Below, one piece after another: positions 1,499 to 57,710 of a stretch of 64,000 nucleotides of DNA. This stretch comes from Azolla caroliniana. Taxonomy: Eukaryota > Plantae > Polypodiophyta. The first letter of the stretch is position 1, and each line of letters begins with the position of its first letter. The stretch covers positions 15,190,001 through 15,254,000 of the forward strand of contig JBHGNT010000011.1 of assembly GCA_043228905.1 (NCBI GenBank), written 5' to 3'. The notes below the pieces were generated by a model. The model searched no databases. It was not told where the DNA came from and saw only the letters and a program-made list of their open reading frames with translations. The position numbers and the translations under genes were made by a program.

Positions 1499-1499
1499 A

Positions 1500-8764: not shown

Positions 8765-8886
8765 CATTACAATGGTTAAGGATTTGACACATATATAACA
8801 AGGTTGTGGGTTCAAATCCTTTTGAGGCATCATGTGAGTGTCATCATGACAAGGCATCATCATTATGTGAGTGGCATCATGATACA
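8765..8886 (+). other. Orphan tRNA-derived A-box/B-box module resembling the chromovirus LTR end (decayed LTR or SINE-like head)
   Basis: CATTACAATGG 8765-75 and GGTTCAAATCC 8809-19 (44-nt spacing), followed by TCATGACA-like motifs similar to the reverse complement of the Chromo-3 LTR start. Confidence 0.5.
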
Positions 8887-10394: not shown

Positions 10395-13300
10395 TGTCAG
10401 AACCAAGAGAGAAGATAAAGTGATAGAAGAAAGATATAAAGAGATCACAAGAAGAGGAATGAAATGATAAGAGAAGAATGAATGTATTAAAGTAGAATAA
10501 GAATTGATACAAGATAAGCGATGAGAGCTTAAGACTGGGTTTGAGAAAAATTGTATGTCCATATTTATAGGTTCCTATAGAATAACCTAGTGATTTCTAT
10601 AATGTTCTAGAATGTTCTAGACCTAGAATATTGTAAGATGTTCTAGAACATTTACAATAATCAGTCTATTACAAGAAGTAGCTTTTATTATTTCATATAA
10701 TCATATGCTATTTTAATGGTTAGGTTCTTTATTATGTATTACAAGGTCTTAGGTTCAAGCCCAAGTGAAGCCACATAATGTTCACGAATTCATGACACTA
10801 TCCCTTCTTTGAAAACGACGAGTGGAAGGAGTTGTTAACAATGCAGGGCCGGGTTTGTTGGGATAGCGATGATGGAAGTCGTCAATAAGAGCTTGAGCAT
10901 TACAAACATTATCGACGGGTTCCCATGTGCGATCACTCGGAGTGTACTCAGAGTGTAGCCTAGCCAATCAACTAGATAATACAACTTATTGCGCACAATC
11001 TTTGAATCAAGAATGGAGGCTACCTCGTACTCTGGGCCATCAGCAAGTTGGAGAGGAGGCGGTGGCGGCACGACACGATTGGGAATCAAGTTGGTGTGGT
11101 AAGGTTCCAAAAGAGAGCTGTGAAAGAACAAGACGGAATGTTGCAGGAAGATCAAGACGGAATGTTGCATCATTAATCCGCTTCGTGATGACAAAAGGAC
11201 CCAAGCGTTTATAATCTAGTTTATCACACGATCGAGTAGTCTTTATGTGACGGGCGTAACAACCATACCCGATCACCAACCTTGAATGGAGACGGAAGAC
11301 GATGTCGATCTGCATGGGCCTTATGTTGGGCTTGAGCTTTCTGAAGATATGAAGACAACTTAGACTGAAGGTGTTGTAGTCGATGGAGGTGTTGCTCTGC
11401 ACTAGGGTTTGGTGAGATCACTGGAATGTCCAAGAGACACCATCGAGGATGGTTGCCAGTATAGGCATAGAAAGGTGTGACCTTGGTAGAAGATTGTATG
11501 GTGTTATTGTATGTAAACTCTGCGAGATGCAATATATGACTCCAATCATCTTGTTGATAACTGATGAAACATCGAAGATACTACTCAAGTGTTTGATTTG
11601 TGCGCTTTGTTTGGCCATCAGTTTTGGGATGATATGTTGAAGAGAGTTTGCAAGAGATTCGGAGCCTGTCACATAGGTGGTTCCAAAAGTGAGAGATAAA
11701 TTGCAGTCCACGATCACTAATTATGTCGTTGGGAAGACCATGATGGCGAAATACTTCACACATAATGATATCTGTTGTTTCTTGACTACTGATGCTTTTT
11801 ACGTAGGGTAGAAAATGTGCCATCTTGGTAAATCGATCCACTACAGTTAAAATAGCATCAAAACCTTGTGAAGGTGGCAGATCAATAATGAAATCCATAG
11901 TAATTGACTGCCATGGCTTGCTCGGAGTCAGCAATGGTTGTAACAACCCATAAGGATGATGCCTAGGAATTTTAGCTCGACAACATGTGTCACATGTGCG
12001 AACATAATCTTCAACGAATTGTTGTAAATGAGGCCACCAAAATGATCCCTTCACTAGCTCCATGGTCTTGGCAATACCAAAGTGTTTGGCCATATGGGCA
12101 TCATGACAGTGCTCCAACACTCGAAGGCGTGGTGATCCATTAGGGACATAAAGTAGATTCTTGTAGAAAAGTAAGTTATCTTGCCACTTGAACTCCTTAT
12201 AGCGTAGAGATGTCCCTGGCAATGTGGAGCAAAATGCATGATTTGGACCAAGGCGGGCGAAGACATCATTAGCAAAATCATTAGAGTTAAGTTATTGTCG
12301 AATAGTATCAAGAAGACTTGAATCCAATGGCGTGGCACAAACCGTGGTTGCTTGTAGCTTTGCTAGACCAAGGAGAACTTGCTTTTGATTGTCGAAAGTT
12401 GGATCTCTAGGGCGAAGTGCCAAATACGAGCGTCGAGATAGAGCATCTGCTTGCCCTTGTTGGTTCCCTAGGCAGAAAATTATCTTGAAATCAAAACGAG
12501 TTAAACATTGCGCCCACCGTGCTGGTCGCCTATTTAGCACTCGAGCCGTTTGAAAATATGTAAGATTTTTGTGGTCACTATAAATGATGATTTGATGAGG
12601 CGAACCTTCAAGGAAATGTCGCCACTGCGCAAAAGAGTCGACCATAGTTAGTAACTCTTTGTCATGCACCTCGTAGTTGATCTCCGCAACATTAAACTTT
12701 CTTGAGTGAAACGCGACTAGATGTAAGTGCCCATCTTCACCTAGTTGTGATAGGATGCTCCCCAATGCAAAGTCGGAGGCATCTACCTCAATGATAAATG
12801 ACTTTTCTGGATCAACATGAGCTAAGACAGGAGCTGATGTGAATGCCTCTTTCAACTAAGTAAAGGCTTTGTCTACTTCAGGAGTCCAAACAAATGCTTG
12901 ATTTTTCTTGGTGAGTTGAGTAAGCTACAATACAATCTTCGAATAATTCCATATGAATTTGTGGTAGAAGTTGGCAAATCCAAGGAAACACTGGACATCG
13001 CGGACGGAACTTGGAGTATGCCATTCCAATACTGTTTGAACTTTTGTTGGATCCATGAAGATACCTTTGGATGAAGTGGTATAACCCAAGAACTCAACTT
13101 CTTTGCAATCAAAACTACACTTCTCTAGTTTGGCATAAAGATCATACTCTCTTAAGTGTTGGAGTACTTTCCGGACATGTATATCATGCTTCGCTTGTGT
13201 TCTAGAGTAAATCAATAGATCATCTAAATAGATGATAAGAAAGATATCTAGAAAATCTCGGAAAATGTCTTTTGCCATATGTTGAAACACGACAGGAGCA

Positions 13301-14031
13301 TTTATGAGCCCAAAAGGCATAACTGTATACTCAAAATGGCCCTATCGAGTGCGAAATGCCATCTTCCACTCGTCTCTCGGTCGAATACGGACAAGATTAT
13401 ATGCACCCCTTAGATCAATCTTGGTAAAATGCTTTGCCCCACCAATGCGCTCTAAAAGGCTGGAAATTAAAGGTAGAGCATACCTATTTCTTATTGTGAC
13501 TTTATTTAATCCCCGATAATCCACGACCAAACGAAGTGAACCGTCCTTTTTCTTCACGAAAAAGATAGGAGCACCAGCTGGAGATTTTGAATGTCAAATA
13601 AATCCACTTGAAAGATTCTCGTCAATGTATGCTCAAAGAACCTCAAGCTCCGTTGGTAACACATTGTAGATTGGACCCCATAGTGGCTCTTTTCCTTGCT
13701 GTAGATCAATGGGACAATCGTATGGCCGATGCTTTGGGAGTACACTAGCTTTGCCTTTGTCGAAGACATTAACATATTCTTGGTACTTTTTAGGAATGTA
13801 GACCTCTGACTTCCCTTGAGTGTCACTAGAAGGTGCAGCTGATATGGCAAATAAGAATAAATCTTCTTTTGCTCCTTCTTGGCATAATTGTTCTAGGGTG
13901 ATGGTTGAAATTTGATGAAGAAGAACAACATGTTTGGTAGAGGGTGAATTGGTAACACTATGTTTTTCAAGGGGAGGATCCTGGGTTCGACCCTTGACTA
14001 CTATGTTTCCTTTTGAAGGGCACCTAATTTC

Positions 14032-19986: not shown

Positions 19987-21476
19987 ATTTCTCGTCGTCT
20001 CCAATCAATTCTTGGGTTGTGTAGCTCGAACCATGGCAAACCAAGGACAATTGGATGCTCAAGGCTATGCATTATGTTAAAGGAGACTACACATCCTAAA
20101 TCACCTAAGAGTATGTATATCGGCTCAGACTCCTCGAATATCTTTCCAGAAGCTATGGGACGTCCATCAATTACTACTACAGAAACTGGGCAAGGAAGTT
20201 TATGCAAGGCTATTTGATGTTTTCAAGTGCCAAAATCTCTATCCATGAAACAAGAATTGGCTTCGGTATCTAAGAGAGTTGGGACATGAAGTTGACAACT
20301 TGGTGTCCTAACTTGTACTTGGCTTGAGAAAACTCTACTAACATGCTTGGAAGAGATGGAACCCACACTAGGCTGTATAGATCTAGGACTAACCAACCAA
20401 ATGGCTCCGATTTTGGCCGGACTTATTCGTTTGACTCCTCTTCTAATTGGCTTAGGACCTCAAACTTTTTGGATAGAGTTGGATTACTAGAAACACTAGT
20501 TGGCACACTTTCAACAATGTTAGACTCATTTCTATTATGAAAAATGCTAGACTCATTTCTATTATCGACAATGAATGGCAATATGTCCTGGACCTCCACA
20601 ATATAAGCATAGTCGATTTGCTCGACGACTTTGTTTCTCTTCATCTGATAAAGGTCCTCGTCGCCGGGTCATATCAATCTCCATTGGTGTCGGGCAATCC
20701 ATTGGTGTGGGGCTACGTGCTTGCCGTGGAGTTGGGACGGGGCTATATTGTTGCCTTGAATATTGTGCCCTCACTAATGCATAAGTTGGTGTAAATCTTG
20801 ATCTTGTTTGTTGTTGTTGTCGCTCGGACCAACGCTCAAAAAGCCGATTATCACACTGTATTGCTCGGCTAATAGCTTCTGTAAGGGATTTTGGATCCTC
20901 AAGGAAGGTAAGAAGTAAATCTTTTATATATTGTTATTCCTTAGGGCTGTCATGATATGGCAAGACTCGAACCCATGACCTTATGCTACATGGGTCGAGC
21001 TCTTGACCATTAGACTATACATTGTAATACGTAGAATATTATTTTCATTTATGTTTTATTATAGAAAATTGATGTATATTCCAGATTTCTCTGGAACATT
21101 CTAGAAACTTCAGGAGTATTTCTTAGAACACTATAAAAGGAGGTACGAGGCATTATTTCGAACCAAATCGGTTCAACGCCAGTCTTAAGCCTCCTAGCTA
21201 CTACTGTACATTCTCTTCACATAATATATATCTTTTCTTATCATCTCTCTCTCTCTCTCTCTCGATCTCTCTCTCCCTCCCTCTCACTCACTCTTTCCTT
21301 CTCTCGAGAGTTCTTCACTTCTCTTAGTACTAATACTTCTTTTAGTACTAATTCCTTCTCTGTCTTAGTACTGTTCCTGACAGTTTGAATCGATTTTGAT
21401 CGATCTTCCTTTCCTCCTCTTCCTTTCCTCCTTTTCCTTTTATCTTCTTATTAATCCTCTTATCCTCCATAGTAAA

Positions 21477-35100: not shown

Positions 35101-35181
35101 CCCCTTCTATCACCTGCTCTTCGGTTCAAGACCCCGGTGGTCCCGCTTCGTTTCTCCACGCACGCGTGTAGTAACGCGACA
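23198..35181 (+). mobile_element. TrpGy-1: tRNA-Trp-primed Ty3/Gypsy element (degenerate), containing TrpGy-2
   Basis: LTRs 23198-~23847 and 34629-35181 (3' LTR lacks ~98 bp); PBS TGGTGAACCCGACGTGAA 23852-69; PPT GGTGGGGGCGGA; 4-bp TSD CCGT/TCGT; gag-PR 23865-25888 + 30936-31060, RT-RH-IN 31292-34636 with several nonsense codons. Confidence 0.93.
25889..30935 (-). mobile_element. TrpGy-2: rearranged tRNA-Trp-primed gypsy element (integrase and most of RNase H missing)
   Basis: LTRs 25889-26518 and 30306-30935 (630 bp); PBS 30285-30302; TSD ACGG; gag 28769..30262, RT 26902..28155; host flank duplicated at 26519-~26729. Confidence 0.92.
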
Positions 35182-35185
35182 TCGT

Positions 35186-38179: not shown

Positions 38180-38594
38180 TGTCATGATATGGCAAGACTC
38201 GAACCCATGACTTTATGCTACATGGATCGAGCTCTTGACCATTAGACTATACATTGTAATACGTAGAATATTATTTTCATTTATGTTTTCTTATAGAAAA
38301 TTGATGTATATTCCAGATTTCTCTGGAACATTCTAGAAACTTCAGGAGTATTCCTTAGAACACTATAAAAGGAGGCACGAGGCATTATTTCGAACCAAAT
38401 CGGTTCAACGGTAGTCTTAAGCCTCCTAGCTACTACTGTACATTCTCTTCACATAATATATATCTTTTCTTATCATCTCTCTCTCTCTCTTGATCTCTCT
38501 CTCCCTCCCTCTCACTCACTCTTTCCTTCTCTCGAGAGTTCTTCACCTCTCTTAGTACTAATTCCTTCTCTGTCTTAGTACTGTTCCTTAAAAG

Positions 38595-41500
38595 TGTTGG
38601 GATTACGGTCCCTTCGGATGGGATGGTCGGATATCGGAGATGAATGCCGACAAGCCCGGTTTCGGTTTCGGAACCGGATGATGAAGATCCCGGCTTCGGA
38701 GCCGGATGACGAATGTACCCGGAACGAGATCCGGATGCGGGGACATATCTGTGAATATGTTTGCCAAGGGCCCTTGAGGCTATAGATGTAAATAGCCCCA
38801 TAGTCATATGTGTATAAATATGACTTAGGGCAAACAGTTTTGATGTTGCTACTTATTTTTCTGTTTTTCCACTCAAGAGGAGTGAAGAGAGAGCAGCCGC
38901 GAGAGAGATAGAGCGCGAGAGAGATAGAGCGTGAGAGAGGAAGAGGTCGACGCCTCTGTGTATTTCCGCCGCCTGTGGCGAGGACAGCGAGCTCAAGGTC
39001 GTTGCCTTGCAGCTCGCCATTGTATATTTCTCTGTGCATAGTTTTGGTTTGGAGTCTTGTACTCCCGTGGTTTTTCCCGTCTAGGGTTTTCCACGTTAAT
39101 CCCTGTGTATTCGTGTTCTTTCTCTGTGGTTCCTATTTTCTGCTGCATTGATTCGTGCTTACTCGGTTGTGGCCGAGTGGTGAAGGTAAATCGGAGCGTC
39201 GATTTCTCTGCAAACTGGTATCAGAGCGACTGCTGCAGAAAATGGAAGGCGGCGGCAGCGGGCAGCCGGGGATGATGGTGCTGAATGCACAGAATTACGC
39301 CGACTGGAAGATCAAGATGGAGGATCTTCTGATTGTTCGGGACCTGTACGAACCGATTGACAGGTCGGAAATACCGAAGGGGGTACTTGAGTCGGAATGG
39401 AGGCTTCTGAACCGGAAAGCCGTTGCAACCATTCGGCAATACGTAGACGTGAGCGTTCTACAACATGTAGCGAACGACATCAACGCATATGAGATGTGGC
39501 GGAAGCTGTCGGGCCTCTACGAGAGGAAGAATGCGTTGAACCGGACCTCCCTGATGAGGAAGATAGTGAACCTCAAGTACCGGGACGGCGAGAGTATGGT
39601 GGAACACGTAAGCACGTTCATGGGATTCGTGAACCAGCTTGCGGCGATCAAGTTCCCGCTGGAGGATGCAATGCAAGCCATCATTCTGATGTGTACATTG
39701 CCGGAAAGCTGGGAGAACTTGGTGGTGACTCTCAGCACCTCCTGCACGGAAGATAACTTGTCCCTACAAACGGTAAAGACAAGTATTTTGAACGAAGAAG
39801 CGCGTCGGAGAGATAAAGAACCGGCCTCCGATCCGAAGATGTTGTTTACCGAATCGGATCGGGGAAGACAACGGAACCGAAGTCCGCAAAGACGGGAGAA
39901 GTCGGGGACCCGGTCGTAGTCAAGAGGAAGGCCCACATGCTTCCACTGTGGGAAGCCGGGGCACTTCCGAAAGAATTGTCGGCATTACCGAAAAGACAAC
40001 GGAGCCGACGACACCGATTCGAAGAAGTCTTCGGAACGAAACGGGGCTTACCGGGGAGCCACGGAGCGGAATGGTTCGGATCGGCGAGGGCAGGACAGGA
40101 AAGGAACGACGGCACTCGCGGCAAGTGAGGAAGAAATCATGCTCATCACCGAAGAAGGTGAGCTAAACATTGCCGGCGATGAGACGACCTGGGTGGTCGA
40201 TTCCGGAGCGTCGTTCCACCTGACCCCGGAAAGAAGATACTTCTCATCCTACACAGCCGGTGAGCATGGCTGTGTTCGGATGGGAAATGAAGGTACGTGC
40301 CGGATCGCCGGCATAGGAGACGTGTGGTTGACAACCTCGACCGGATGTAAAATGCTGCTGAAGGATGTCCGACACGTTCCGGAGGTTCGATTGAACCTGA
40401 TTTCGGCCGGGAGGCTAGACGATGAAGGCTACACAGGTAGCATCCGGAACGGCGTAATGAAGTTCAGCAAGGGGAGCCTGATAGTGGCTCGGGCCCGAAA
40501 AGTCAACACATTGTACCTGATGAATGCCCGGTTATGTCCGGAAGAGCTGAATGTGGCAGCCGACACTGCCGGTGAGCTGTGGCACAAAAGACTGTGCCAC
40601 ATGAGTGAGAAGGGGATGAAGAGGCTTGCAGAAGACAATCTTATTCCAGTGAAGCATGTGCACCTGGAGAAGTGCACCGATTGCCTGGCCGGTAAGCAGA
40701 ACCGAACCTCCTTCCACTCAAGGCCACCGACGAGACGTAGCGCACCATTGGAGTTGGTGCACACCGATGTGTGTCAGGTAGAAACGAAGTCACATGGCGG
40801 AGCCCAGTACTTCGTAACATTCATAGATGATCATAGCCGAAGACTGTGAACGGCACCGATGAAGACAAAGGACCAAGTGTTGTCCGTCTTCAAAGAACTC
40901 CACGCGAGAGTGGAAAGAGAATCCGGCAAGAAGCTGAAAGCGATACGAGCGGATAACGGAGGGGAATACCGGGGACAGTTCCAGGAGTACTGTCGCTCGA
41001 AGGGAATCCGGCTCGAGTTTGCTGTGCCGAAGACGCCGGAACTGAACGGGCTGGCCGAGAGGATGAACCGGACCATAATGGAGAGGGTCCGGAGTATGCT
41101 GGCGCATGCGGAATTACCCAAGGGGTTTTGGGCTGAGGCGATGTCGACGGCGACATACGTGATAAACAGATCACCCTCAGTACCTTTGGACGGAGACACG
41201 CCGCAGAGAGTGTGGACCGGTAGGGAAGTATCTTACCGGCATCTGAAGGTGTTCGGGTGTCTCGCATACGTGCATGTGGCAAAGGACCGGAGAGGAAAGC
41301 TAGATCCAAAGACCCGGCCATGCATATTCCTCGGTTACGGCGATGACGAGTTCGGCTACCGAGTATGGGACCCGGTCGACAAGAAGATATTCCGGAGTCG
41401 TGATATCATCTTCATGGAGAACAAGACACTCGCCGACTAGGAGTCGGAGAAGAAGATGAAGAGCTCCAAGTCGACCGGTGAGGATCAACTCTACGAGGAG

Positions 41501-43940
41501 CAGTCCCGACCGGCAAGGGACCGGTTAGCACTCGAGGATCCGGCCGAAGACGGTGAAGAAACAGAACCGGCCGAAGAAGATGAAAATGATACCGGAACCG
41601 GCCCCGATCCCGAAATGGATTCGGATGAAGAAGAATCGGAAGAACCGGTTGCCGAAGCTCCGGAACGGAGATATCCTCTAAGAGAGAGAAGGGCCCCCCG
41701 GAGATTTCCGGAACCAGAGCACCTGTTGCTAACCGACGAGGGGGAGCCGGAGAGCTTTGAAGAGGCAAAGCATGACACCCAGAGCCGCAGGTGGTTGAGT
41801 GCCATGCAGGACGAGATGGATTCCCTGCATGAGAACCACACATATGAACTTGTGGAGCTGCCGAAAGGAAAACGGGCACTCCGTAACAAGTGGGTGTTCA
41901 AGCTGAAACCGGGAGATGCCGGAAACCCCCCGAGATACAAAGCCAGGATCGTGGTGAAGGGGTTTCAGCAGAAGAAGGGCGTCGACTTCGACGAGATATT
42001 TGCCCCGGTAGTGAAGATGACCTCCATCCGGACGGTGCTCAGCATAGCGGCAAGCATGGACCTCGAGGTAGAACAGATGGACGTGAAGACGGCATTCCTT
42101 CACGGTGACCTCGAAGAAGAGATCTACATGCAGCAACCGGAAGGATTCGAGAAGAAAGGGAAGGAGCACCTGGTATGCCGGTTGAAGAAGAGCCTCTACG
42201 GACTGAAGCAGGCTCCCCGGCAATGGTACCAGAAGTTCGACTCCTTCATGACCGACGAAGGGTACCTCAAAACGCAGTCCGACCACTGCGTGTTTGTGAA
42301 GAAGTTCGAAGGAGGAGACTTTCTAATACTCCTCCTGTACGTGGACGACATGTTGATCGTCGGACGAGACCAGGTCAAGATACGGATGCTGAAGAAGGCT
42401 CTTCACCGAACCTTCTCAATGAAGGACCTGGGTCCGGCGAGACAAATACTAGGGATGCACATCATCCGGGACCGGAGCAAGAAGCAGTTGTGGCTGTCAC
42501 AGGAAAAGTACGTGACAAAGGTGCTTAAACGGTTCAACATGTCGGAAGCAAGGCCGGTCGGATCACTCCCGGCAAACTGCAAGCTGTCCAACAAGCAAAG
42601 TCCCAAGACAAAGGCTGAAAAGGAGGATATGATGAAAGTGCCGTATGCCTCAGCCGTCGGGAGCTTGATGTACGCCATGGTGTGTACGAGACCAGACATA
42701 GGATATGCAGTCGGAGTGGTGAGCCGGTACATGAGCAATCCCGGCAAAGAGCATTGGAACGCGGCCAAGTGGATACTCCGATACCTGAAGAGCACGACAA
42801 ACGTGTGCCTCCGATTCGGCTCCGGTAAGCCCGAACTCGACGGCTTCACCGATTCGGATATGTCGGCTGATGCAGATACCAGCCGGTCCACATCAGGGTA
42901 TGTGATGACGTATGCAGGGGGAGCTGTTTCATGGCAGTCGAGGCTACAGAAGACGGTTGCGTTGTCAACCACGGAGGCGGAGTACATGGCGGCTGTTGAA
43001 GCCGGCAAGGAAATAATATGGATGAAGGACTTCATTAGAGAGCTCGGTATCCGGCAGGAGGAGTACCGACTCTACTGCGACAGTCAGAGTGCAATCCACC
43101 TTGCAAAGAACGCGGCCTATCACTCCCGGACGAAGCACATCCAGCGAAGATATCACTGGATCCGGGAAAGGATAGAAGACAAGGAGTTCGTGCTGACGAA
43201 GGTCCACACGGACGAGAACGGGTCGGATATGCTGACCAAGGTGCTCACGCCCGACAAGCTGGAAGCATGCCGGAAGAGGATCGGATTGGAGAGACATCCC
43301 ATGCCGAAGTGAAGGGGGAGTTTGTTGGGATTACGGTCCCTTCGGATGGGATGGTCGGATATCGGAGATGAATGCCGACAAGCCCGGTTTCGGTTTCGGA
43401 ACCGGATGATGAAGATCCCGGCTTCGGAGCCGGATGACGAATGTACCCGGAACGAGATCCGGATGCGGGGACATATCTGTGAATATGTTTGCCAAGGGCC
43501 CTTGAGGCTATAGATGTAAATAGCCCCAAAGTCATATGTGTATAAATATGACTTAGGGCAAACAGTTTTGATGTTGCTACTTATTTTTCTGTTTTTCCAC
43601 TCAAGAGGAGTGAAGAGAGAGCAGCCGCGAGAGAGATAGAGCGCGAGAGAGATAGAGCGTGAGAGAGGACGAGGTCGACGCCTCTGTGTATTTCCGCCGC
43701 CTGTGGCGAGGACAGCGAGCTCAAGGTCGTCGCCTTGCAGCTCGCCATTGTATATTTCTCTGTGCATAGTTTTGGTTTGGAGTCTTGTACTCCCGTGGTT
43801 TTTCCCGTCTAGGGTTTTCCACGTTAATCCCTGTGTATTCGTGTTCTTTCTCTGTGGTTCCTATTTTCTGCTGCATTGATTCGTGCTTACTCGGTTGTGG
43901 CCGAGTGGTGAAGGTAAATCGGAGCGTCGATTTCTCTGCA
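38595..43940 (+). mobile_element. Copia-3: full-length Ty1/Copia element (Tnt1/Tork-like motifs)
   Basis: 618-bp LTRs 38595-39212 and 43323-43940 (3 differences seen); TSD AAAAG; PBS TGGTATCAGAGC (tRNA-iMet); PPT GAAGGGGGAG. Confidence 0.98.
39242..43312 (+). pseudogene. Copia-3 single-frame gag-pol with three in-frame stops (39917, 40847, 41438)
   Basis: ORFs 39155, 40139, 40859, 41456 share one frame; CFHCGKPGHFRKNC, WVVDSGAS, HTDV, YVDD, HIQRRYHWIRE. Confidence 0.93.
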
Positions 43941-44469
43941 AAAAGGGCCGGACAATGGCCTAACACAGGGTGTCTACGGAAGACACATCACCAAAGGGGT
44001 GTTACGGCCAGATAACTTAAGATACAACGATTACTCAGACTTTAATTGGTTACTTAGCAATATGGCATTAGACTTGATACACGCGTATGATAGAACAATT
44101 AGCACAGAACGGTAATCAACACTTAAAGATAAAACAAGAAGCTCTATTAATTATCCATCAAAGTTTTACATTATAACCGGGCCTTTATATAGGTCACCGG
44201 TGCTGAGTACAAAACGGTGCCAACCGGCACCTGTTCGGAACCGGTCCGGATCCGGATCGGCATTCCGATACCGGTTCTTCCGTTCGCGTCTCATAAACTA
44301 CTTAATTATTGTCATGAAGACATACATCTTGGCTTATCATGACATTCATCTTGGCGAACCAGGAATCGAACCCATAACCTCTTGGTTTACATATTGTACT
44401 TTAACCATTGTAATAACATATGTGAGATGTAATCATAATAATTATATGTTTAGTTATTACGAGATATTT

Positions 44470-44594
44470 AGAACATTCTAGATTATTCTAGAATGTTCTT
44501 GAATATTTCATGATTATATTTATTATTATTATTATTCATAAATATCTAAAATATTCTAGAACATTCTAGAATACTCCATAAGGGCCTATAAATA
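44470..44594 (+). promoter_or_regulatory. Heat-shock-element arrays and TATA box in Chromo-3 U3
   Basis: AGAAC-ATTCT-AGATT-ATTCT-AGAAT-GTTCT-TGAAT (44470-504), ATTCT-AGAAC-ATTCT-AGAAT (44553-72), TATAAATA 44587. Confidence 0.75.
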
Positions 44595-44860
44595 AGAGTC
44601 CATACACTCATCACAACTCATTCGGTTCAACACCAGTCTTTAGCCCTTAGCCTACTCCTTGTAATCTTCTTTCTCATAATATAATCGCATTCCCATTTCT
44701 TATCTCTCACTTATACTTTTCTCTCTCTCGCACTCTCTCCCTCTTTCACTCTCTTTCTATCACTATCGCTATCTCTACCGCTCTCGCCATCTCTATCGTT
44801 ATCGTTATCTCTATCGCCATCGCTCTCTCTCTCTGCTTCCTACTCAAGAGTCACGACAGT

Positions 44861-44871
44861 TTGAACCGAAT
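44861..44871 (+). promoter_or_regulatory. Self-priming PBS of Chromo-3
   Basis: TTGAACCGAAT is the exact reverse complement of ATTCGGTTCAA (44620-30), which lies 33 nt after the TATA start. Confidence 0.85.
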
Positions 44872-44943
44872 ATTTCTTTTCCCTTTCTTCAATAACTCTA
44901 GCAAGCTTTCTTCTTTATCCTTCTTTCTTTTTCCCCCGCGGTT

Positions 44944-46071
44944 ATGGAGTCGGTCAGCAAGCAAGAGTATATGCGTGTCCTTTCGGAGCTCGATATGCTC
45001 ACCACTAAGTTTGTGGCATTAGAGCACGAAAATCAAAGGCTACTCGGGGATCTTCAACAAGTCAGTACTGAGAAAGCTCATCAATATGAGGAGTTATCAC
45101 AACGGGTTCATCAACTTGAGGCTACTATATTAACATTACGAGAACAAGCGGCGGGGGTTCAAAACTCCCCAAGGGAACCAAAGATTAGCCTCCCTGCCAA
45201 GTTTGATGGTACCAGATCTCTCTTTCGAGGTTTCCTGAATCAAGTTCGTTTGGTGATTCAGTTACATCCCAATCGGTATCCAACTGATGCTGCCCGTGTG
45301 GGATTAATAGGAACCTTGCTAAGCGGTACAGCGTTAGCATGGTTTGCACCACTTCTTGAGAAGAAATCACCATTACTGGAGGATTTCGAGGCATTCGTTA
45401 AGGAGTTTCAAGCTAGTTTTGGAGATACGGATAGCACTAGGACTGCAATAAACAAGATTCAAAGACTCCGACAAGGAGATCGTCCCGCTTCAGCTTATGC
45501 CGCAGATTTCCGTCTCTTGGCATGCGACATCCCTTGGGATGAGGCAGCCTTAATGGATCAATTCCGTCAGGGTTTGCGTAACGATGTCAAAGATCTTCTT
45601 CTTACTTTCCATGAAGATCCAAAGTCTCTTACTGAAGCTATTAGCCGAGCTGTGCAATGTGATAATCGCCTATTTGAGCGACGTTCTGAACGTCAACAAA
45701 TGTTACGCCGCCAACCGGAACAGACATACGCTTCTATAGTCGCCACACCGCCACAAGGTTCTAGACCCGTTACGAGGGATGGTCCCACTCCGATGGAAAT
45801 AGAGTCGACACAACGTCGAGGGCCCTTATCAGATGCTGAGAAACAACGACGTCGGGCGCATCGCCTATGCCTCTACTGTGGTGGTCCAGGACATATAGCT
45901 GTGAATTGCCCACATAAACCCAGGCGTCAAGTTTACCAAGTAAGTGCACATGACAACCCTACATCAAGTTCTACTATCACTTCTAATAACTTAAGTACTA
46001 AGCCTACTAGCCCATGCCATGAGAATAGATTTGATGTCTTGAGCCAATTAGAGGATGTGTTAAACGAATAA
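44944..46071 (+). CDS. gag: Chromo-3 Gag
   Basis: 375 aa; PAKFDGTRSLFRGFLNQ, LRQG, CLYCGGPGHIAVNC. Confidence 0.95.
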   Translation: MESVSKQEYMRVLSELDMLTTKFVALEHENQRLLGDLQQVSTEKAHQYEELSQRVHQLEATILTLREQAAGVQNSPREPKISLPAKFDGTRSLFRGFLNQVRLVIQLHPNRYPTDAARVGLIGTLLSGTALAWFAPLLEKKSPLLEDFEAFVKEFQASFGDTDSTRTAINKIQRLRQGDRPASAYAADFRLLACDIPWDEAALMDQFRQGLRNDVKDLLLTFHEDPKSLTEAISRAVQCDNRLFERRSERQQMLRRQPEQTYASIVATPPQGSRPVTRDGPTPMEIESTQRRGPLSDAEKQRRRAHRLCLYCGGPGHIAVNCPHKPRRQVYQVSAHDNPTSSSTITSNNLSTKPTSPCHENRFDVLSQLEDVLNE

Positions 46072-49000
46072 GTCCGGCCAAAATAGGAGCCATTTGGTTG
46101 GACCATCCTAGTTATGTAGAGTCAGTACCTAGTTGTGGTTCCATTTCATCAAATCAAGTTAGTAGAGTTTTTTCTGCACAAGTCGAGCTTAGCACATCTA
46201 CAGGTCATCGCGCCCTAGCCTCTGCCCTCCTAGATTCCGGAGCCAATTCTTGTTTCATGGATCGCGAGTTTGCATTGACTCAAAACATCATCTTGAAAAA
46301 ACTCCCAAACCCAGTAGCTGTAGGAGTCATCGATGGTCGCCCTATAGCATCAGGAGATATAGTCGAAGAGTCTGAACCAATTCGTGTAGTCCTAGGTAAT
46401 TTGGCTAGTGTCATCTCATTTAACATCATTAGTAGTCCGGAGCACTCTCTAGTTCTTGGTCTTCCTTGGTTTGAGTTACATAACCCAACCATTGATTGGA
46501 GAAAAAGAACTATTGAAGAGGTCACCGTACAATCCAAGTCTCTTGAAGCTCCAACTAAGGATCTAGGATCCCCCACAATTTCAACAATCTCTATACATCA
46601 ATTACGAGAGGATGGAAGAAAGGAAGACATGATGGTATTTGCGGTTTTAGCAACTCCCTCATCTAGCTCACAAGAATTGGGGGTCCAACTACCAAAGAAG
46701 TACATAGAATTCTCCGATGTGTTCGATAAGGTGAAGGCTAATAGACTACCAGAGCATCGACCATATGATTGCCCAATTGATTTGCAGCCAGGAAAAGAGC
46801 CTCCATGGGGACCAATTTATAATCTTTCGCCCACGGAGTTAGAGGTTCTTCGAGAATATATCAATGAGAACTTGGCAAATGGTTTTATCCAACATTCAAA
46901 ATCTCCTGCTGGTGCACCCATCTTTTTCGTTAAGAAGAAAGATGGTACGCTTCGTATGGTCGTGGATTATCGAGGCTTGAATAAAGTGACCGTTAGAAAC
47001 CGATATGCTCTCCCATTGATCTCAAGCCTTCTAGAACGCCTCAGTGAAGCAAAGTATTTCACGAAGTTAGATCTTCGAGGTGCCTACAACCTTGTTCGAA
47101 TTCGTCCTGGGGATGAATGGAAGACGGCGTTCCGCACTCGCTATGGTCATTTTGAGTACACAGTGATGCCTTTTGGCCTCACGAATGCACCAGCAGTCTT
47201 CCAACATATGGCGAATGATATTTTTCGAGACTTCCTCGATATCTTCATCATTGTTTACCTGGATGATATCTTGATCTACTCAAAAACTCAAGAAGAACAT
47301 GATATACATGTTCGCCAAGTTTTGCAACGGCTACGAGAGTATGGTCTCTATGCAAAATTGGAGAAGTGTAGTTTCGACCAACGTCAAGTGGAGTTTTTGG
47401 GGTACATAGTCTCTTCAAATGGCATCTCTATGGATCCATCAAAGGTTCAAACAATTTTGGATTGGCAAACACCACAATCCGTGCGAGATGTGCAATGTTT
47501 TTTGGGGTTCGCAAACTTTTATCGCAAGTTCATCAAAGACTATTCAAAAATTGTGTTGCCCCTCACTCAACTGACGCACAAGAATCGATCATTTGTATGG
47601 AGTATAGATGCGAACTCTGCATTTGAGGGTTTAAAGCAAGCATTTACATCCGCACCAATCTTAATCCATGTCGATCCAATGAGGCGCTTTATACTTGAAG
47701 CTGATGCATCGGATTTCGCACTCGGAAGTGTACTATCCCAAATTGGTGATGATGGTGAACTGCACCCGGTGGCTTTTCACTCACGAAAATTTGAAGCCGC
47801 AGAAATCAACTATGAGATTCACGACAAAGAGCTTCTTGCCATTGTGGATTCTTTTCAACAATGGCGTCATTTTCTGGAGGGTTCTTCTCAGCAGATTATT
47901 GTCTACAATGATCATAAAAATCTAACATACTTTCAAAGTGCTCGAGTCTTGAATCGACGACAAGCTCGTTGGGCGCAGTTCTTAACTCGTTTCGATTTTG
48001 TAATTCTATATCGCCCTGGGATGCAACAAGGAAAAGCAGATGCTTTATCTAGACGTTCGTATATGGAACTTCAACCTGGAGAGGCCGCATTTGAAAGCCA
48101 AAAGCAAATCCTCTTAGGTCCTGATCGTCTGCGAATAATGGCAATGCATACCATCAACACACCGGGAGATTCAAGGCTTCTTGATTCCATTCGTGAGCAG
48201 ATTGCGACTGATGCGTTCGCCCAAGAGGTTTTGAGCCATATTATCCCAAATCGTGCATCTAGCTCCCAAACTCAAAATCCTCGTCTAGACTACACCCAGT
48301 TTAGTTGGCATGATGGGTTACTTTTTCGACAAACTCTCTTGTATGTGCCTGACGGTCCTTCTCGACTCAAAGTCATGCAACAATGTCATGACACACCAAT
48401 GGCGGGACACTTCGGCATCCACAAGACTTTTGAGTTGATTTCTCGCCGATATTGGTGGCCACGGCTTCGCCATTTTGTTACGGATTATGTTCGTAGCTGT
48501 GATACATGTTGCCGATCAAAAAAGCCTCGACATCATCCATATGGCTTATTACAGCCAATGCCTATTCCGGAGAGCCCATGGAAATCTATTTCCTTGGACT
48601 TTATTACGGATCTTCCACCTTCCAAGGGATTTGATTCGATTCTCACGGTTGTCGATCGTTTTACGAAGATGGCACATTTCCTTCCATGCACAAAGACCAT
48701 TACTAGTCAAGAGACAGCTGATTTACTCATGTGGGAGGTGTTTCGCCATCATGGTCTTCCGGATGATATTATCAGTGATCGGGGTCCCCAATTCATCTCG
48801 AAATTTTGGCGGCACATGTTCAGACTCTTACATACTTCTTGTAAACTCTCTTCCGGCTACCATCCAGAGACTAATGGGCAGAGTGAGCGCACCAACCAAA
48901 CAGTCGAGCAATATCTACGTTGTTTTGTCAACTATCAACAAGATGATTGGGTGGATTTACTACCTTTGGCAGAATTTGCTTATAACAACTCCGAGCATTC

Positions 49001-49703
49001 TTCTACTGGATATTCCCCATTTTTTGCAAACATTGGGTACCATCCTCGTTGGACGATGCTTGAACATCCTGAACTCCCAAAAAACCCAGCTGCTGAAGAT
49101 CGGCTCACTCGACTCCAAGAAGTTCAGGATATGCTTTTGCATCATTTATGTGAAGCCCAAAACACTCAAAAGAAGATTGCTGACCGTCATCGGCGTGATT
49201 CATCGACTACATTTCAAGTAGGCGATCGTGTATGGCTCTTACAAGGTACCATTAAAACGACCCGACCTTGCTACAAATTGGATTATCAACGTTTTGGCCC
49301 ATATGTCATAAGTGGTAAGATCAATGATGTGACATTTCGTCTTGATCTTCCTCCTCATATGCGTCTTCACCCGGTCTTCCATGTTTCACTTTTGGAGCCT
49401 TACACAACGAGCTCTATTCCGGGTCGTGTTACACCTCCCCCACCTCCAATTGACGTTTCCAATGGCTCTGAATATGAGGTTGCCGCTATCCTCGACTCCA
49501 AGATCATTCGCAACAAACTATACTACTTGGTTGATTGGTTAGGCTATACACCTAATGATCGAACATGGGAGCCTGCCGAACATCTTGCCAATGCCTCCGA
49601 CATGGTTGTTGCATTTCACAACCAATATCCTCATAAACCAAGTCTGAACTCTTTTCTTCCGACTCGTGCAACTCGTCATCGAAAAGGGGGGATAATGTCA
49701 TGA
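46059..49703 (+). CDS. pol: Chromo-3 Pol (PR-RT-RH-IN-chromodomain), probably reached by -1 frameshift
   Basis: LLDSGANS, YLDD, HDTPMAGH...CDTC, ISDRGPQF, chromodomain EYEVAAILDSK...LVDWLGY...TWEP; the -1 frame is open from GTTAAAC (46059) into ORF 46098..49703. Confidence 0.95.
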   Translation, partial: VKRISPAKIGAIWLDHPSYVESVPSCGSISSNQVSRVFSAQVELSTSTGHRALASALLDSGANSCFMDREFALTQNIILKKLPNPVAVGVIDGRPIASGDIVEESEPIRVVLGNLASVISFNIISSPEHSLVLGLPWFELHNPTIDWRKRTIEEVTVQSKSLEAPTKDLGSPTISTISIHQLREDGRKEDMMVFAVLATPSSSSQELGVQLPKKYIEFSDVFDKVKANRLPEHRPYDCPIDLQPGKEPPWGPIYNLSPTELEVLREYINENLANGFIQHSKSPAGAPIFFVKKKDGTLRMVVDYRGLNKVTVRNRYALPLISSLLERLSEAKYFTKLDLRGAYNLVRIRPGDEWKTAFRTRYGHFEYTVMPFGLTNAPAVFQHMANDIFRDFLDIFIIVYLDDILIYSKTQEEHDIHVRQVLQRLREYGLYAKLEKCSFDQRQVEFLGYIVSSNGISMDPSKVQTILDWQTPQSVRDVQCFLGFANFYRKFIKDYSKIVLPLTQLTHKNRSFVWSIDANSAFEGLKQAFTSAPILIHVDPMRRFILEADASDFALGSVLSQIGDDGELHPVAFHSRKFEAAEINYEIHDKELLAIVDSFQQWRHFLEGSSQQIIVYNDHKNLTYFQSARVLNRRQARWAQFLTRFDFVILYRPGMQQGKADALSRRSYMELQPGEAAFESQKQILLGPDRLRIMAMHTINTPGDSRLLDSIREQIATDAFAQEVLSHIIPNRASSSQTQNPRLDYTQFSWHDGLLFRQTLLYVPDGPSRLKVMQQCHDTPMAGHFGIHKTFELISRRYWWPRLRHFVTDYVRSCDTCCRSKKPRHHPYGLLQPMPIPESPWKSISLDFITDLPPSKGFDSILTVVDRFTKMAHFLPCTKTITSQETADLLMWEVFRHHGLPDDIISDRGPQFISKFWRHMFRLLHTSCKLSSGYHPETNGQSERTNQTVEQYLRCFVNYQQDDWVDLLPLAEFAYNNSEHSSTGYSPFFANIGYHPRWTMLEHPELPKNPAAEDRLTRLQEVQDMLLHHLCEAQNTQKKIADRHRRDSSTTFQVGDRVWLLQGTIKTTRPCYKLDYQRFGPYVISGKINDVTFRLDLPPHMRLHPVFHVSLLEPYTTSSIPGRVTPPPPPIDVSNGSEYEVAAILDSKIIRNKLYYLVDWLGYTPNDRTWEPAEHLANASDMVVAFHNQYPHKPSLNSFLPTRATRHRKGGIMS

Positions 49704-51223
49704 AGACATACATCTTGGCTTATCATGACATTCATCTTGGCGAACCAGGAATCGAACCCATAACCTCTTGGTTTACATATTATACTTTAACCATTGTAAT
49801 AACATATGTGAGATGTAATCATAATAATTATATGTTTAGTTATTACGAGATATTTAGAACATTCTAGATTATTCTAGAATGTTCTTGAATATTTCATGAT
49901 TATATTTATTATTATTATTATTCATAAATATCTAAAATATTCTAGAACATTCTAGAATACTCCATAAGGGCCTATAAATAAGAGTCCATACACTCATCAC
50001 AACTCATTCGGTTCAACACCAGTCTTTAGCCCTTAGCCTACTCCTTGTAATCTTCTTTCTCATAATATAATCGCATTCCCATTTCTTATCTCTCACTTAT
50101 ACTTTTCTCTCTCTCGCACTCTCTCCCTCTTTCACTCTCTTTCTATCACTATCGCTATCTCTACCGCTCTCGCCATCTCTATCGTTATCGTTATCTCTAT
50201 CGCCATCGCTCTCTCTCTCTGCTTCCTACTCAAGAGTCACGACAATTATAATAGATTCCGAATATATAATCCCTTTCACATTCTGGTCTTTAACTCCTTT
50301 GCCGGTCGGGTAACACATGGCACGCCCGTGGGACAGTACCTTGTACGTTGTAGAGATATTACGCAAGTGCGTGTGGAATAGAGGCGGGACCGCGGGGGTC
50401 TCGAACCAAAGAGCAAGCGAGGGAGGAGAAAGAGAGAGAACCGGCTACGCAGGACCGGGGATACACAGGGACACGGCCCTTTAGCACGGAGAACGCGAAC
50501 AGACACCGACACAGACGGATGCGAATGACTAAATATGTGTATTAACAAAAAAAATGGCTAACACGACTACAACCCCCGATGGGGCACAGGTTGGTTGCAA
50601 CCGAACAGGCCGGCGAACAGATGCCGATGCCTGTTCGCTTCGACGCACAAACGGGGAAATGGGGGGGGGGTAGCAGGTCGGAGGTGCTGCCGGAAGCACT
50701 CGGGCGTTCCTCGAAACAGCGCGAGCCTCCCCGGAACCCTGCACAGAAAGCTTTGGAGCTCAAGAAGGAAGGAAACAGAGAGAGCGAAGCGTCCAGAAAC
50801 GGTCCGACAGCACTTCGTCCTCTCCGCGCCAGATCCCTGCAACAGCTCTTTCCCGCTCCTTATATAGGCCGACGAACAGGCCGTCGTGTCAGCTTTATTC
50901 CCTGTCCCTTTTGGACAGGGATCCGCTCCGTTTTTCACGGATCCGCGTAGTTACGCCGCCGACTCGTACAGTTCGCGCGCGCGACCGAAAAGACTGTTCG
51001 CGCGGTCTTTGTCTCCACTTGAGTTAGGGCCCGTTCCTGCCGATTATCCTCTCAATTCGTTTCTATGTACAACTCGGAGCGTGCGCGCGTGAAGAACCGG
51101 TTCCCACGCCTTGGTGCGCCGATTCCGCCTATGGACGGTTTTCTTCACGACATCCGCCCCCACCTAACCGCGCATCCTCCGGTATGCGCCAAGAGAGTTG
51201 GGACGGAGAAAACCGGCCCGTCT

Positions 51224-54200
51224 TCATTCCTCGCCCGTCGGTTCTTCTTCATTTTCGGATCGTTCGTCACTGCCGACCAGGAGAGCCGGGTCTGGCTCGT
51301 CGTCGTGTCGCTTCTTGAACGCTTTGATCCGCTTCCCTGCAACCGGTATCGCCATCCTCGTGCCGTCAAGTTCCGCCAGGTGATATGTCCCGTTGTCATT
51401 GGCGCTCCGTACCACGTAAGGCCCGAACCACCTTCGTGCGAACTTCCGTGTGGCTCGGTGCTGGTTGTCGAGGCTGCTGTCGTAGACGAGCACCCAGTCA
51501 CCTTCTTCGATTTTCTTCGGTCGTAGCCGGTGCGTTCGGTCGAACCGGGCTTTGTTCTTTGTCCTCGCCACCCGGAGCTTCTCCGTAGCCAGTGCCACGT
51601 CCTCCGGCCTCCGCTCGAGCTGTCGTATACGTGCGACCAACAACTCCTCCCGGCTCATCTCGTCCCTCCAGTCGACCGTTGCCCACGAGGAGATCGTCCG
51701 TTCAATCGGCATGATCGGCGTCTGGCCGAACATGAGCTCCGTCGGCATGTACCCGGTTACCGAACTGTGCGTGGTCCGGTCTGCCCACAAAGCATAAGGT
51801 AGCAGCCGCGGCCAGTCACCGGCTCGGCCTCCGCATGCCCGAACCAACGCCTTGACGATCGGTCCGTGTCCGCGCTCCACCTTTCCATTCGCCTCCGGAT
51901 TGTACGCAGTGGTGAGCGAGAGCTGGACTCCCAGCCGGTCGAACAGCTCCGCGGCTTCTTCGGCGTCCAACTCCCCTCGGTCAGCCACGATCTTCCCGAC
52001 GCACCCGTACCGGCATATCACGTCCTCGATTAGGAACCGGCATACGGCCGCGGTCGTTTTGTTTGGAAGGGCCCGGCCTTCCACTTGGTTCGTCAGATCC
52101 TCCCGCGCTAGGACCAGGTACCGCATCTGTCCTACCCCCATTGGCATCGTCACCAGATCTACCATCCATTTGAAGTGGATGGTCGGAGGGTACGTGGGGT
52201 GAAGCTCGTCCCGATGTCGGACTATGGAGTGCATCTGACAGCTCCCGCAAGTTGTCACGAACCGATGCACGTCCCGGTACTGCCCCGGCCACCAATACTT
52301 CCCCTTTAGTTTCTCAAACGTAGCCCATGTTCCACGGTGTCCAGCCCAAGGGCTGTCGTGGTAGGCCGTCAGCAGTTCCTCCTGTTCTTCCTTCATCGCC
52401 ACCACTCGGAGCGGGACGCCGTCCCTCTTCTTCGGGTGTTTCCATAGATGCCCATCTCGGAGAAAGAATCGATATGCTTTCTTCCGGATCCGGTTGGCCT
52501 CGTCCTTCGTCCATGACGCATCGGGCGTCATCGTCTTCAAAAACCCGCCGATCTGCAGCCATTCCCCGTCGTACTTGCTCGCGTCGAACTCGTTAAGCGC
52601 CGGAGTGCTCACCCCGTCGGTCGTTATGTATGCCGCCTCGAAGAAATCCACGCCGACTTCTTCGTCTTCCGAAACCATGCCGCCCTCGTCGTCGAACCTC
52701 GCCCTCGAAAGCATGTCGGCCATGGCGTTGTCTTTCCCGGAAATGTGTCGTATTTCCGGGTCCAGGGACTTGATGTACGCTATCCACCTGAGCATCGCCA
52801 GGTCCGGAGTCGCGCATCCGGAAACCATACCGAGAATCGGCAGGCAATCCGTCTCGATGATCACTTCCGTCCCTATCAGGTAGTCTTTGTCGGCCTTAAC
52901 CGCCGAAACAATACCCCAGAGTTCGCGTTTAACCTGGGCGTATCCTCGCTGCCGTTCACTGAGGACTTTCGCGCCGAATCGGATCGGAAACCGATTGCCG
53001 TCCTCGTCTTCCTGGTTCACGACCCATCCGATCCCGGTCGGACTGGTATCCACCGTTATGAATACCGGGGTACCCTTCCCGTAAACCGCCTTCCGGAGTG
53101 CCGGTGCCGCTGCAAGGGCCTCTTTCAGCTTCCGGACCGATTCCGCGTGCTTGTCTAGCCATTCGAACCTTCGCCCCTTTTTCAGCAACCCGTACAGTGG
53201 CTCCGCGACGTGTGCGTAATGCGGGATCCATATGTGGTAGAACGCGCATGCCCCCAGGAATCTCCGTACTTCCGTGACCGAGCTGCAGTCGGGCTTCATC
53301 GCGGAGATGGCTTCTACCTTCGCCGGAGACGGTTTCCGGCCATATGGTCCGCACAGGTGTCCGACCACCATGATTTCTGACTGCCCGAAGGCCGACTTCT
53401 CCCCGGAGAAGGTGAGTCTCGCATCCTCTAGCCTTTGCAGCACCTTCTCGCAGTCGTCGACGTGCGTCGCCACGAATCGCCGGCATCCGTCCGGCCCGAT
53501 CGTCTCGTCCTTTTCTTCCACCGGGCATCCCTTGATCGGGATGTCGTCCAGAAACGGCATGGTAATGTCCGGGACACAGTCCCTCAGAACCTTGTTCATC
53601 GCATTCACCATGTGGGCCACCGAGTTGGTCCCTCCTTGCGGCAGTGTACACATCCGAACTAGGCCGAGGGGAGTTCGCATCGTCGTAAGGTCTCTGCTCT
53701 CCACGGCCAGCTGGAACTGGTCGTACCCTGAGTATAGATCCCCGACCGAGTAAATTGACCTTCCGGCGAAGGCCTCCGCGAACTCGTCTATGGTCGGTCC
53801 GATTCCTGCGTTCCGAATGGTCACTCGATTGACCGGCTGCAGGTCCTGGATGAAGCGCAGCGAACCGTTTTTCTTCGGTACGGTAAACCATCGATTCGAA
53901 TATGGGGCGCTCGACGGCTCGAGAATTCCCATATCAACTTTCTGCCTCAGCAGCTCCATCAACTTCGGGATGTGAGCTCTCGGAACCGGGATTGGCTTGA
54001 GATTCCATGGTACATGCGGTACCGTGAATATCACCATCGGCTCCACGATCGTCGGGTCAACGCACCCGATTTCCTCCGGCGAGAATGCGAAGGCTTTCCC
54101 GTGCCTTCCGAGCATTCTCCGAAACCGGTCTTCCTCCGCCGGCAGTAGGAACCCGCCCCCACCGATTTTGAGCTCTCGGAGCGTCTCGTCAGTGAAGGTG

Positions 54201-56838: not shown

Positions 56839-57710
56839 CTTCTGCTCTTCTGCCGCCTCTTTCACGTCGGGTTCACCAAAGATGTAGAGATATTACGCAA
56901 GTGCGTGTGGAATAGAGGCGGGACCGCGGGGGTCTCGAACCAAAGAGCAAGCGAGGGAGGAGAAAGAGAGAGAACCGGCTACGCAGGACCGGGGATACAC
57001 AGGGACACGGCCCTTTAGCACGGAGAACGCGAACAGACACCGACACAGACGGATGCGAATGACTAAATATGTGTATTAACAAAAAAAATGGCTAACACGA
57101 CTACAACCCCCGATGGGGCACAGGTTGGTTGCAACCGAACAGGCCGGCGAACAGATGCCGATGCCTGTTCGCTTCGACGCACAAACGGGGAAATGGGGGG
57201 GGGGTAGCAGGTCGGAGGTGCTGCCGGAAGCACTCGGGCGTTCCTCGAAACAGCGCGAGCCTCCCCGGAACCCTGCACAGAAAGCTTTGGAGCTCAAGAA
57301 GGAAGGAAACAGAGAGAGCGAAGCGTCCAGAAACGGTCCGACAGCACTTCGTCCTCTCCGCGCCAGATCCCTGCAACAGCTCTTTCCCGCTCCTTATATA
57401 GGCCGACGAACAGGCCGTCGTGTCAGCTTTATTCCCTGTCCCTTTTGGACAGGGATCCGCTCCGTTTTTCACGGATCCGCGTAGTTACGCCGCCGACTCG
57501 TACAGTTCGCGCGCGCGACCGAAAAGACTGTTCGCGCGGTCTTTGTCTCCACTTGAGTTAGGGCCCGTTCCTGCCGATTATCCTCTCAATTCGTTTCTAT
57601 GTACAACTCGGAGCGTGCGCGCGTGAAGAACCGGTTCCCACGCCTTGGTGCGCCGATTCCGCCTATGGACGGTTTTCTTCACGACAACGTCGAATCCCAC
57701 TATCCGGCCC

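Follow-up and report, generated by a model that had tools for sequence, protein, structure and literature searches.

An antisense, apparently tRNA-derived A-box/B-box module at the U3 tip marks a clade of Tcn1-like chromoviruses and is a candidate TFIIIC site

Organization of the locus

The window, which is the whole 64-kb stretch of DNA that was analysed, is a nest of LTR retrotransposons, three of which, here called C1, C2 and C3, are chromoviruses (Table 1). C3 is an intact element of 5.9 kb in which both the gag and the pol frame are open; its LTRs are identical at 548 of 549 positions. It combines Ty3/gypsy pol with a C-terminal group I chromodomain that contains all three cage aromatics, as is characteristic of the Tcn1 clade. 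C1 and C2 likewise encode Ty3/gypsy pol domains, as identified by tblastn, and are broken up by other elements. The LTR boundaries and target-site duplications (TSDs) of C2 (AGGGC) and C3 were confirmed.

The remainder of the window contains additional repeats. A young copia element (38595-43942, LTRs 99.5% identical) abuts the end of the C2 3' LTR and overlaps the C2 target-site duplication. Several nested GC-rich Ty3/gypsy elements that are not chromoviruses occupy positions 23053-35184 and 50349-64000; in one of these, gag includes DUF4100 and the two LTRs of 804 bp (50349-51152 and 56883-57686) are identical. Within positions 1-3247, a 1147-nt repeat is present in copies 2100 nt apart with 99.9% identity, which represents either a tandem duplication or an assembly artefact.

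A profile scan of the window detects six copies of a tRNA-like A-box/B-box module, from four families. A reading of the sequence alone had placed the boxes in C1, C2 and C3, and the boxes, their coordinates and the A-box to B-box spacings of 43 nt (C3), 44 nt (C2) and 43 nt (C1) are all correct on the sequence. The modules of these three elements are antisense to the element and not more than about 110 nt from the TG end, and the module is positioned between the att end and the enhancer/TATA region. The truncated LTR at 8765 is 85-88% identical to the LTRs of L012, L069 and L122, and represents the fourth family. The module copy at this position is an LTR fragment and was rejected as a candidate for a free SINE.

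The TTC/GAA arrays in the 5' LTR of C3 are presumably heat-shock-element-like. Arrays of this type are present in the C1, C2, C3 and F04/F07 families (window 44471-44575 and the matching LTR regions). Some of the other compared LTRs (L011, L049, L030, L008, L054, L028, L066 and L034) contain CATGCA and CAAGTGG/CACGTG words, and L034 has different tandem repeats in its enhancer region. Motifs of these kinds suggest that the LTRs may be stress-inducible.

Table 1. Positions of the modules, their carrier elements and associated features in the window
Feature	Position	Strand	Description
C3 5' LTR module	44352..44415	-	Putative tRNA-derived A/B unit
C3 5' LTR A-box	44415-44405	-	Read from sequence
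C3 5' LTR conserved 44-47 block	44380-44377	-	Read from sequence
C3 5' LTR B-box	44372-44362	-	Read from sequence
C3 5' LTR GCCA remnant	end at 44352	-	Read from sequence
C3 3' LTR module, T8 at 49801	49738..49801	-	Profile scan
C2 5' LTR (20948-21382) module	20958..21017	-	A-box 21017-21007, B-box 20973-20964
C2 3' LTR (38180 to ~38592) module, T8 at 38249	38190..38249	-	Profile scan
C1 3' LTR (10797-10395, minus strand) module	10709..10773	+	A-box 10709-10719, B-box 10752-10762
Fourth-family truncated LTR (~8726-8851, minus strand) module, T8 at 8765	8765..8820	+	Profile scan
C3 intact chromovirus	44310..50244	+	LTRs 44310-44858 and 49696-50244; TSD ATTAT
C3 gag frame	44902-46071	+	Open reading frame
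C3 pol frame	46035-49703	+	RT, RNase H, integrase, chromodomain
C3 5' LTR TTC/GAA arrays (presumably heat-shock-element-like) and TATA box	44471..44594	+	Between module and R
C3 predicted self-primer, start of R	44620..44630	+	Complementary to PBS 44859-44871
C1 pol frame, second tRNA-like A/B unit in protease-RT linker	13937..14005	+	Antisense, in frame

Distribution of the module among related elements

Related loci were collected by a search that is blind to the content of the LTR and keyed on a chromodomain pattern that precedes the 3' LTR by about 170 nt. The metagenome scan provided 123 loci of an estimated 160, and one more was obtained from genome contigs; viral and prokaryote collections contained almost no matches. 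The start of the LTR was located in 88 sequences, including the window copies, and the 78 sequences with at least 140 nt of LTR form 45 clusters. Twenty-five clusters belong to the clade of the window elements, as determined from a short tree or, for five of them, from the C-terminal peptide and polypurine tract. The trees were calculated by FastTree from the loci only, with no named Tcn1 reference among the rows. The families are present at high depth in four coded organisms and also occur in leaf or plant metagenomes. This occurrence and the Tcn1-like features (PMC6317226) point to a moss or another non-seed plant as the likely host.

The module scores more than 20 bits in 40 of the 47 clade rows, a count that is partly circular since the profile was built from clade members, and in which some rows are overlapping loci. 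No clade row scores above 5.9 bits on the sense strand, and the position of the module is the same in all families that carry it, which agrees with the antisense placement at the U3 tip reported before. In the outgroup, two of 41 rows (L014 and L047) score above the null maximum, which is 10.2. A longer integrase tree with 55 rows places L014, together with L042, at the base of one module-bearing clade (support 0.937), and L047 is separate from the module clade. Integrase identity to C3 within the clade decreases to 59%. The sister groups L071 and L077 have no module (for L020, the LTR is outside the covered sequence), and neither do chromodomain-bearing relatives outside the clade. Among the 25 clade clusters, four lack a recognisable module, and in another five the A-box is degraded and the B block is retained.

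The module characterises a single clade of self-priming Tcn1-like chromoviruses, in which it is always antisense at the U3 tip. We infer a single capture of a tRNA or the head of a tRNA-SINE in the ancestor of the clade. The observation that three different LTRs of the window each carry the module is accurate; however, the three families are not independent cases, because the module is shared by descent from one capture.

tRNA origin and loss of tRNA structure

The B-box motif alone occurs eight times in the window, compared to an expectation of 3.3, and two of 100 shuffles reach eight. A count of 22 tRNA invariants, chosen independently of the clade alignment, reaches 19-21 in 18 of 20 family representatives and 17 in the other two, whereas the best sites in 60 shuffles of a 5.9-kb element reach 15-18; a real tRNA gene scores 19. 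The proposed derivation of the module from a tRNA is well supported by these invariant positions and by the spacing.

The cloverleaf is no longer present, as had been noticed from the sequence. Rfam identifies no tRNA, either in the window or among 20 loci that contain LTRs, the modules do not match the covariance model, and ARAGORN with default settings calls no tRNA at the modules or anywhere in the window. In 60 loci ARAGORN calls one tRNA, beside an outgroup element. The chromodomain of this outgroup element is about 1.7 kb away from the intact tRNA-Gln gene of L050 (1456-1527), which provides a real-tRNA control. The isotype calls of relaxed ARAGORN were rejected as indicators of the donor tRNA; they do not agree with one another and are close to the noise level (250 shuffles give 16 hits at threshold 80 and 79 hits at threshold 70).

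The acceptor and anticodon stems pair at 0.36, similar to slid controls, and the pairing of the D and T stems (0.60-0.64) does not exceed that of row shuffles. The p value of 0.034 for the acceptor stem is one of five tests and is inside the range of its slid controls. None of the stems covaries, and RNAalifold provides no consensus fold on either strand. The stem-pairing tests and RNAalifold rule out a conserved tRNA fold or another shared helix. In some families (window 20960-21005, L012, L018, L091 and L049), the B-box region and the spacer complement each other and could form a long hairpin, which is not clade-wide.

The sequence-only reading included a conserved CCA end, which is not supported. 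The GCCA sequence is located at tRNA positions 70-73 or nearer and is present in eight of 24 representatives; it is a patchy remnant of the 3' strand of the acceptor stem with the discriminator, not a CCA tail. No SINE body or tail is visible at the LTR tips. Nothing points to a recent SINE insertion as a separate event, given the constant position of the module and the identity of the copy at 8765 as an LTR fragment. An ancestral SINE origin is possible.

Conservation of the boxes and of their spacing

Conservation was evaluated in 24 representatives, of which 20 were picked for an A score of at least 6/8 and a spacing of 37-38 nt, and four were added later; the four module-less clusters are excluded from the counts. 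Identity is 0.80 at tRNA positions 14-21, 0.84 at positions 44-48 and 0.87 at positions 52-58, compared to 0.36 in the spacer, 0.37 at positions 10-13 and 0.33 at positions 62-73, with a composition expectation of 0.28. When the alignment is anchored on the B-box only and degraded families are kept (21 clusters), the identity is 0.80 at positions 44-48, 0.50 in the A-box and 0.37 in the spacer. With the A-box sought 30-49 nt upstream, A14 and G52 are 37-38 nt apart in 48 of 51 loci, whereas the distance from the B-box to the end of the LTR varies from 21 to 73 nt. The boxes and their spacing are thus more conserved than the neighbouring U3, the check that the sequence-only reading had called for.

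Conserved positions of the B part, counted in the 24 representatives, are T47 (24), G46 (23), G45 (22), A44 (22), G53 (23), T54 (24), T55 (24), C56 (23), A58 (24) and C61 (20). Upstream, T8 is present in 22, A14 in 23 and G19 in 24. G10, which is G3 of the A-box, is retained in eight representatives and C62 in nine; the T, A and G of the A-box are otherwise kept. The conserved block extends over positions 20-23, past the classical A-box, and positions 49, 59 and 62 are variable beside fixed neighbours. The earlier description of the sequence between the boxes as diverged applies to the spacer but not to positions 44-48, which are as conserved as the B-box.

Variation within families has a similar distribution. 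Among 32 variable sites listed for C2 copies in four DNA runs, with five rows of the list not shown, none is in the 18-nt block 44-61 and two are in positions 14-21. The C3 copies contain 15 variable sites, of which one is in block 44-61 (G45), none in positions 14-23 and six in the 19-nt spacer. These read-based tests under-report differences near the ends of contigs and stretches.

The differences in conservation argue that the module is under selection in the LTRs of the clade. A neutral, slowly decaying relic of an ancestral tRNA or SINE insertion would have one origin, which accounts for the sharing of the module among the clade families, and it could explain the residual complementarity of the D and T stems at the column level and the absence or degradation of the module in nine of 25 clusters. 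However, the spacer is near saturation (0.36 versus 0.28) and the blocks are retained at 0.80-0.87 among elements with integrases that are only 59-70% identical. The neutral reading is largely contradicted by this conservation, and we give it hardly any chance.

Further tRNA-like captures

The second tRNA-like unit, in the pol frame of C1, is found in three sub-families of the C1 lineage (L056 at about 5593-5662; L006 near 1000-1080 and 6300-6410). The protease-RT linker that contains the unit is 60-80 nt longer than that of C2. Its invariant scores are 19, 19 and 17 of 22, with a null maximum of 18, and with a threshold of 90 ARAGORN reports just two of 25 sequences, the L056 copy and the real tRNA. 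The unit is likely a separate capture, a conclusion with moderate support; the three related sequences are too few to show selection. P0023, a relative of these elements, has a dUTPase domain in the variable protease-RT linker that also received the second tRNA-like unit.

L047 (4693-5341) contains an antisense tRNA-like unit in U3, at about 4840-4915 on the minus strand, with 21 of 22 invariants, a near-canonical A-box and a T run downstream; the unit is represented by one LTR copy only. L047 is a distant self-priming chromovirus from outside the module clade and has a RIP-like composition. The element is likely fungal, and its U3 unit likely represents a further antisense capture.

Self-priming and RNA-level functions

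The primer and the PBS, which form a complement of 11-12 nt, change together across families, also in relatives without the module. The C1 3' LTR in the window lacks the self-primer stretch, which is present in the family member L006. The co-variation supports the earlier suggestion that the elements self-prime. An obligatory pairing of the self-primer with the B-box complement in U3 was rejected, because the primers of the C1 family, L042, L071 and L077 contain no matching word.

It was proposed from the sequence that the module may be a source of antisense Pol III RNA. If the module is a working outward promoter with an RNA that tunes silencing or copy number, transcripts from the 5' LTR would enter the flank, and those from the 3' LTR would cross the polypurine tract in antisense and reach the end of the integrase. 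Both boxes are kept, including the nearly invariant T8, A14 and G19, the 39 nt upstream are on average 82% AT, and the L047 unit combines a canonical A-box with a T run shortly downstream. However, G10 is mostly lost, a T4 run inside the LTR tip is present in three of 20 representatives (a terminator could sit in the flank), CAA near the start is present in six of 20, there is no conserved RNA fold, and the sequence past the B-box is unconserved. An RNA product of the module is doubtful, because the A-box G10 and the Pol III terminator are mostly missing, and a function of this kind appears unlikely.

The two blocks could instead act in the genomic RNA, close to its 3' end, by annealing to a host tRNA, one block to its D arm and the other to its variable/T arm, in the manner of the U3 half of the bipartite PBS of Ty3, and so aid packaging, dimerisation or strand transfer. 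The U3 of Ty3 contains tRNA-complementary segments of 12 and 11 nt with efficient tRNA binding in vitro, according to the available parts of PMC11381356 and PMC5371799. The blocks of the module are about 10 and 18 nt long, and are located in U3 on the correct strand. When wobble pairing to one best-case RNA partner, which is not a real tRNA, is allowed, all 24 rows have two or fewer mismatches over the 18 nt of positions 44-61, and 20 of 24 rows have none at positions 14-23. In contrast, annealing does not need the spacing of a tRNA gene, positions 49, 59 and 62 vary beside fixed neighbours, and the elements self-prime, with module-less relatives priming alike. From self-priming it had been concluded that the module is not a primer relic, yet a Ty3-like annealing role would be compatible with self-priming. 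We consider the annealing role decidedly unlikely.

Candidate TFIIIC site and chromatin barrier

The conserved positions correspond, by analogy, to the set that is read by TFIIIC. The available parts of PMC11724288 describe, for yeast TFIIIC, that a base upstream of the B-box is contacted and that positions 44-47 influence both binding and transcription. The module is a candidate TFIIIC site because of this contact and of positions 44-47 in the yeast structure, and we expect that TFIIIC probably binds it. According to passages of PMC12409998, tRNA genes and ETC sites act as barriers to heterochromatin in a manner that depends on TFIIIC. The available text of PMC3350952 reports that the group I chromodomain of MAGGY binds H3K9me2/3 and that group I chromodomains direct insertion into H3K9-methylated chromatin, and the nested locus of the window fits such insertion into heterochromatin.

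We tentatively propose that the module is retained as a TFIIIC landing site that acts as a chromatin barrier for the Pol II promoter of the element, a reading with a substantial but uncertain chance of being correct. The chromodomain would first steer insertion into heterochromatin. TFIIIC bound to the module would then keep the chromatin at the edge of the 5' LTR open, and productive transcription by Pol III would be rare or absent. As a speculation, antisense may be the orientation that is tolerated, since nucleases that process tRNAs could cleave a genomic RNA that contains the tRNA-like fold in sense. That tRNA genes act as barriers in plants is an extrapolation from yeast and animals.

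Several observations count against the barrier. The spacing of 37-38 nt is tighter than TFIIIC needs, as it tolerates A-B distances of up to 93 bp (PMC11724288, in the available part). The A-box is imperfect, C62 is mostly lost, and positions 20-23 are conserved beyond the classical A-box. The module is absent or has a degraded A-box in some clade clusters, G45 varies inside the C3 family, and the chromodomain-bearing relatives outside the clade manage without the module. Variation within the blocks is almost entirely wobble-compatible with one RNA partner.

Two further readings were considered. A tRNA relic may have been co-opted as binding sites for Pol II transcription factors. The A block on the element strand reads as words that we assume to be MYB- or W-box-like, the module is in U3 upstream of stress-type enhancer arrays, and the conservation through positions 20-23 is outside the classical A-box. 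However, two blocks at tRNA spacing that track tRNA invariants are left unexplained, and the Pol II enhancer motifs change from one sub-lineage to the next, whereas the module is retained; co-option of this kind is highly improbable. Alternatively, TFIIIC on unintegrated cDNA ends or on a new copy could tether the element to sites rich in Pol III/TFIIIC, and bias integration or positioning. The B-box is close to the att end, and integration of Ty3 depends on TFIIIB/TFIIIC, as stated in parts of PMC7175516. Nevertheless, this distance varies among the LTRs, a chromodomain is already part of the integrase, and tRNA genes are scarce near the elements (none in the window, and the single ARAGORN call in 60 loci). 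Tethering is very unlikely.

A wider form of the barrier reading is that heterochromatin-seeking chromoviruses captured tRNA promoters repeatedly and always antisense, namely at the U3 tip of the clade, in the pol linker of the C1 lineage and in a distant, likely fungal LTR, as a built-in tDNA-type insulator that acts via TFIIIC at the LTR edge, so that the elements would stay expressible in silenced chromatin. Such an anti-silencing device would be the first natural tDNA barrier in plants. This wider form is doubtful, though well conceivable.

Elements that insert into heterochromatin depend on continued transcription for their spread, and a TFIIIC site in the LTR would be a concrete answer to this demand. 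If the barrier reading is true, the barrier function of tDNA would extend to plants, and many potential TFIIIC sites would be spread through host genomes, given the high depth of the families. Under the rival readings too, the module would be a cis-element of autonomous LTRs under long-term selection.

Comparison with known systems

No description of the module in autonomous chromoviruses was found in the open literature, in accordance with what the sequence-only reading had supposed; subscription papers, Repbase entries and supplements, including the additional files of REXdb, were outside the scope of the search. One paper is said to possibly describe a Pol III-like sequence in the LTRs of oomycetes. 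The available parts of PMC2864245, PMC13570524 and PMC7175516 contain no mention of such a module.

The carriers of the module resemble the Tcn1 clade, known from non-seed plants and fungi, in domain order, aromatic-cage chromodomain, predicted self-priming, 5-bp TSD and size, as far as these are described in the available parts of PMC6317226, PMC2864245 and PMC3350952. They differ in that no tRNA-like U3 sequence is mentioned there for the Tcn1 clade, and the module is present in one sub-clade only.

The closest known case in the available text of PMC10886601 is Helenus/TRIMp3, with Cassandra and Ajax. Helenus/TRIMp3 has tRNA-derived boxes A and B in both LTRs, as C3 does. According to the same text, Helenus elements are non-autonomous, 311-1263 bp long and tRNA-primed, have TRGCY in box A, and have a promoter that is proposed to make the template RNA. 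In contrast, the carriers of the module are autonomous elements of 5-6 kb with a TATA-type promoter, a PBS that is self-complementary and not tRNA-complementary, and a module that faces outward and has mostly lost G10. They are not members of Helenus/TRIMp3 by autonomy, orientation and priming. The autonomous partners of Helenus are expected to use Pol II promoters, and an LTR of the kind described here is not reported in the available part of PMC10886601.

The module is also similar to the bipartite PBS of Ty3, in which two tRNA-complementary segments of U3, for the D arm and the T arm, are present in the genomic RNA (available parts of PMC5371799 and PMC11381356). However, Ty3 primes with the annealed tRNA, whereas the elements with the module self-prime and have their blocks at the spacing of a tRNA gene.

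The module shares with the tDNA and ETC barriers described in parts of PMC12409998 and PMC11724288 a B-box with the upstream positions 44-47, a weak A-box, the lack of RNA structure and a likely location at a chromatin boundary. The known barriers in these sources are fixed host loci or SINE copies, whereas the candidate site of the chromoviruses is built into a mobile LTR.
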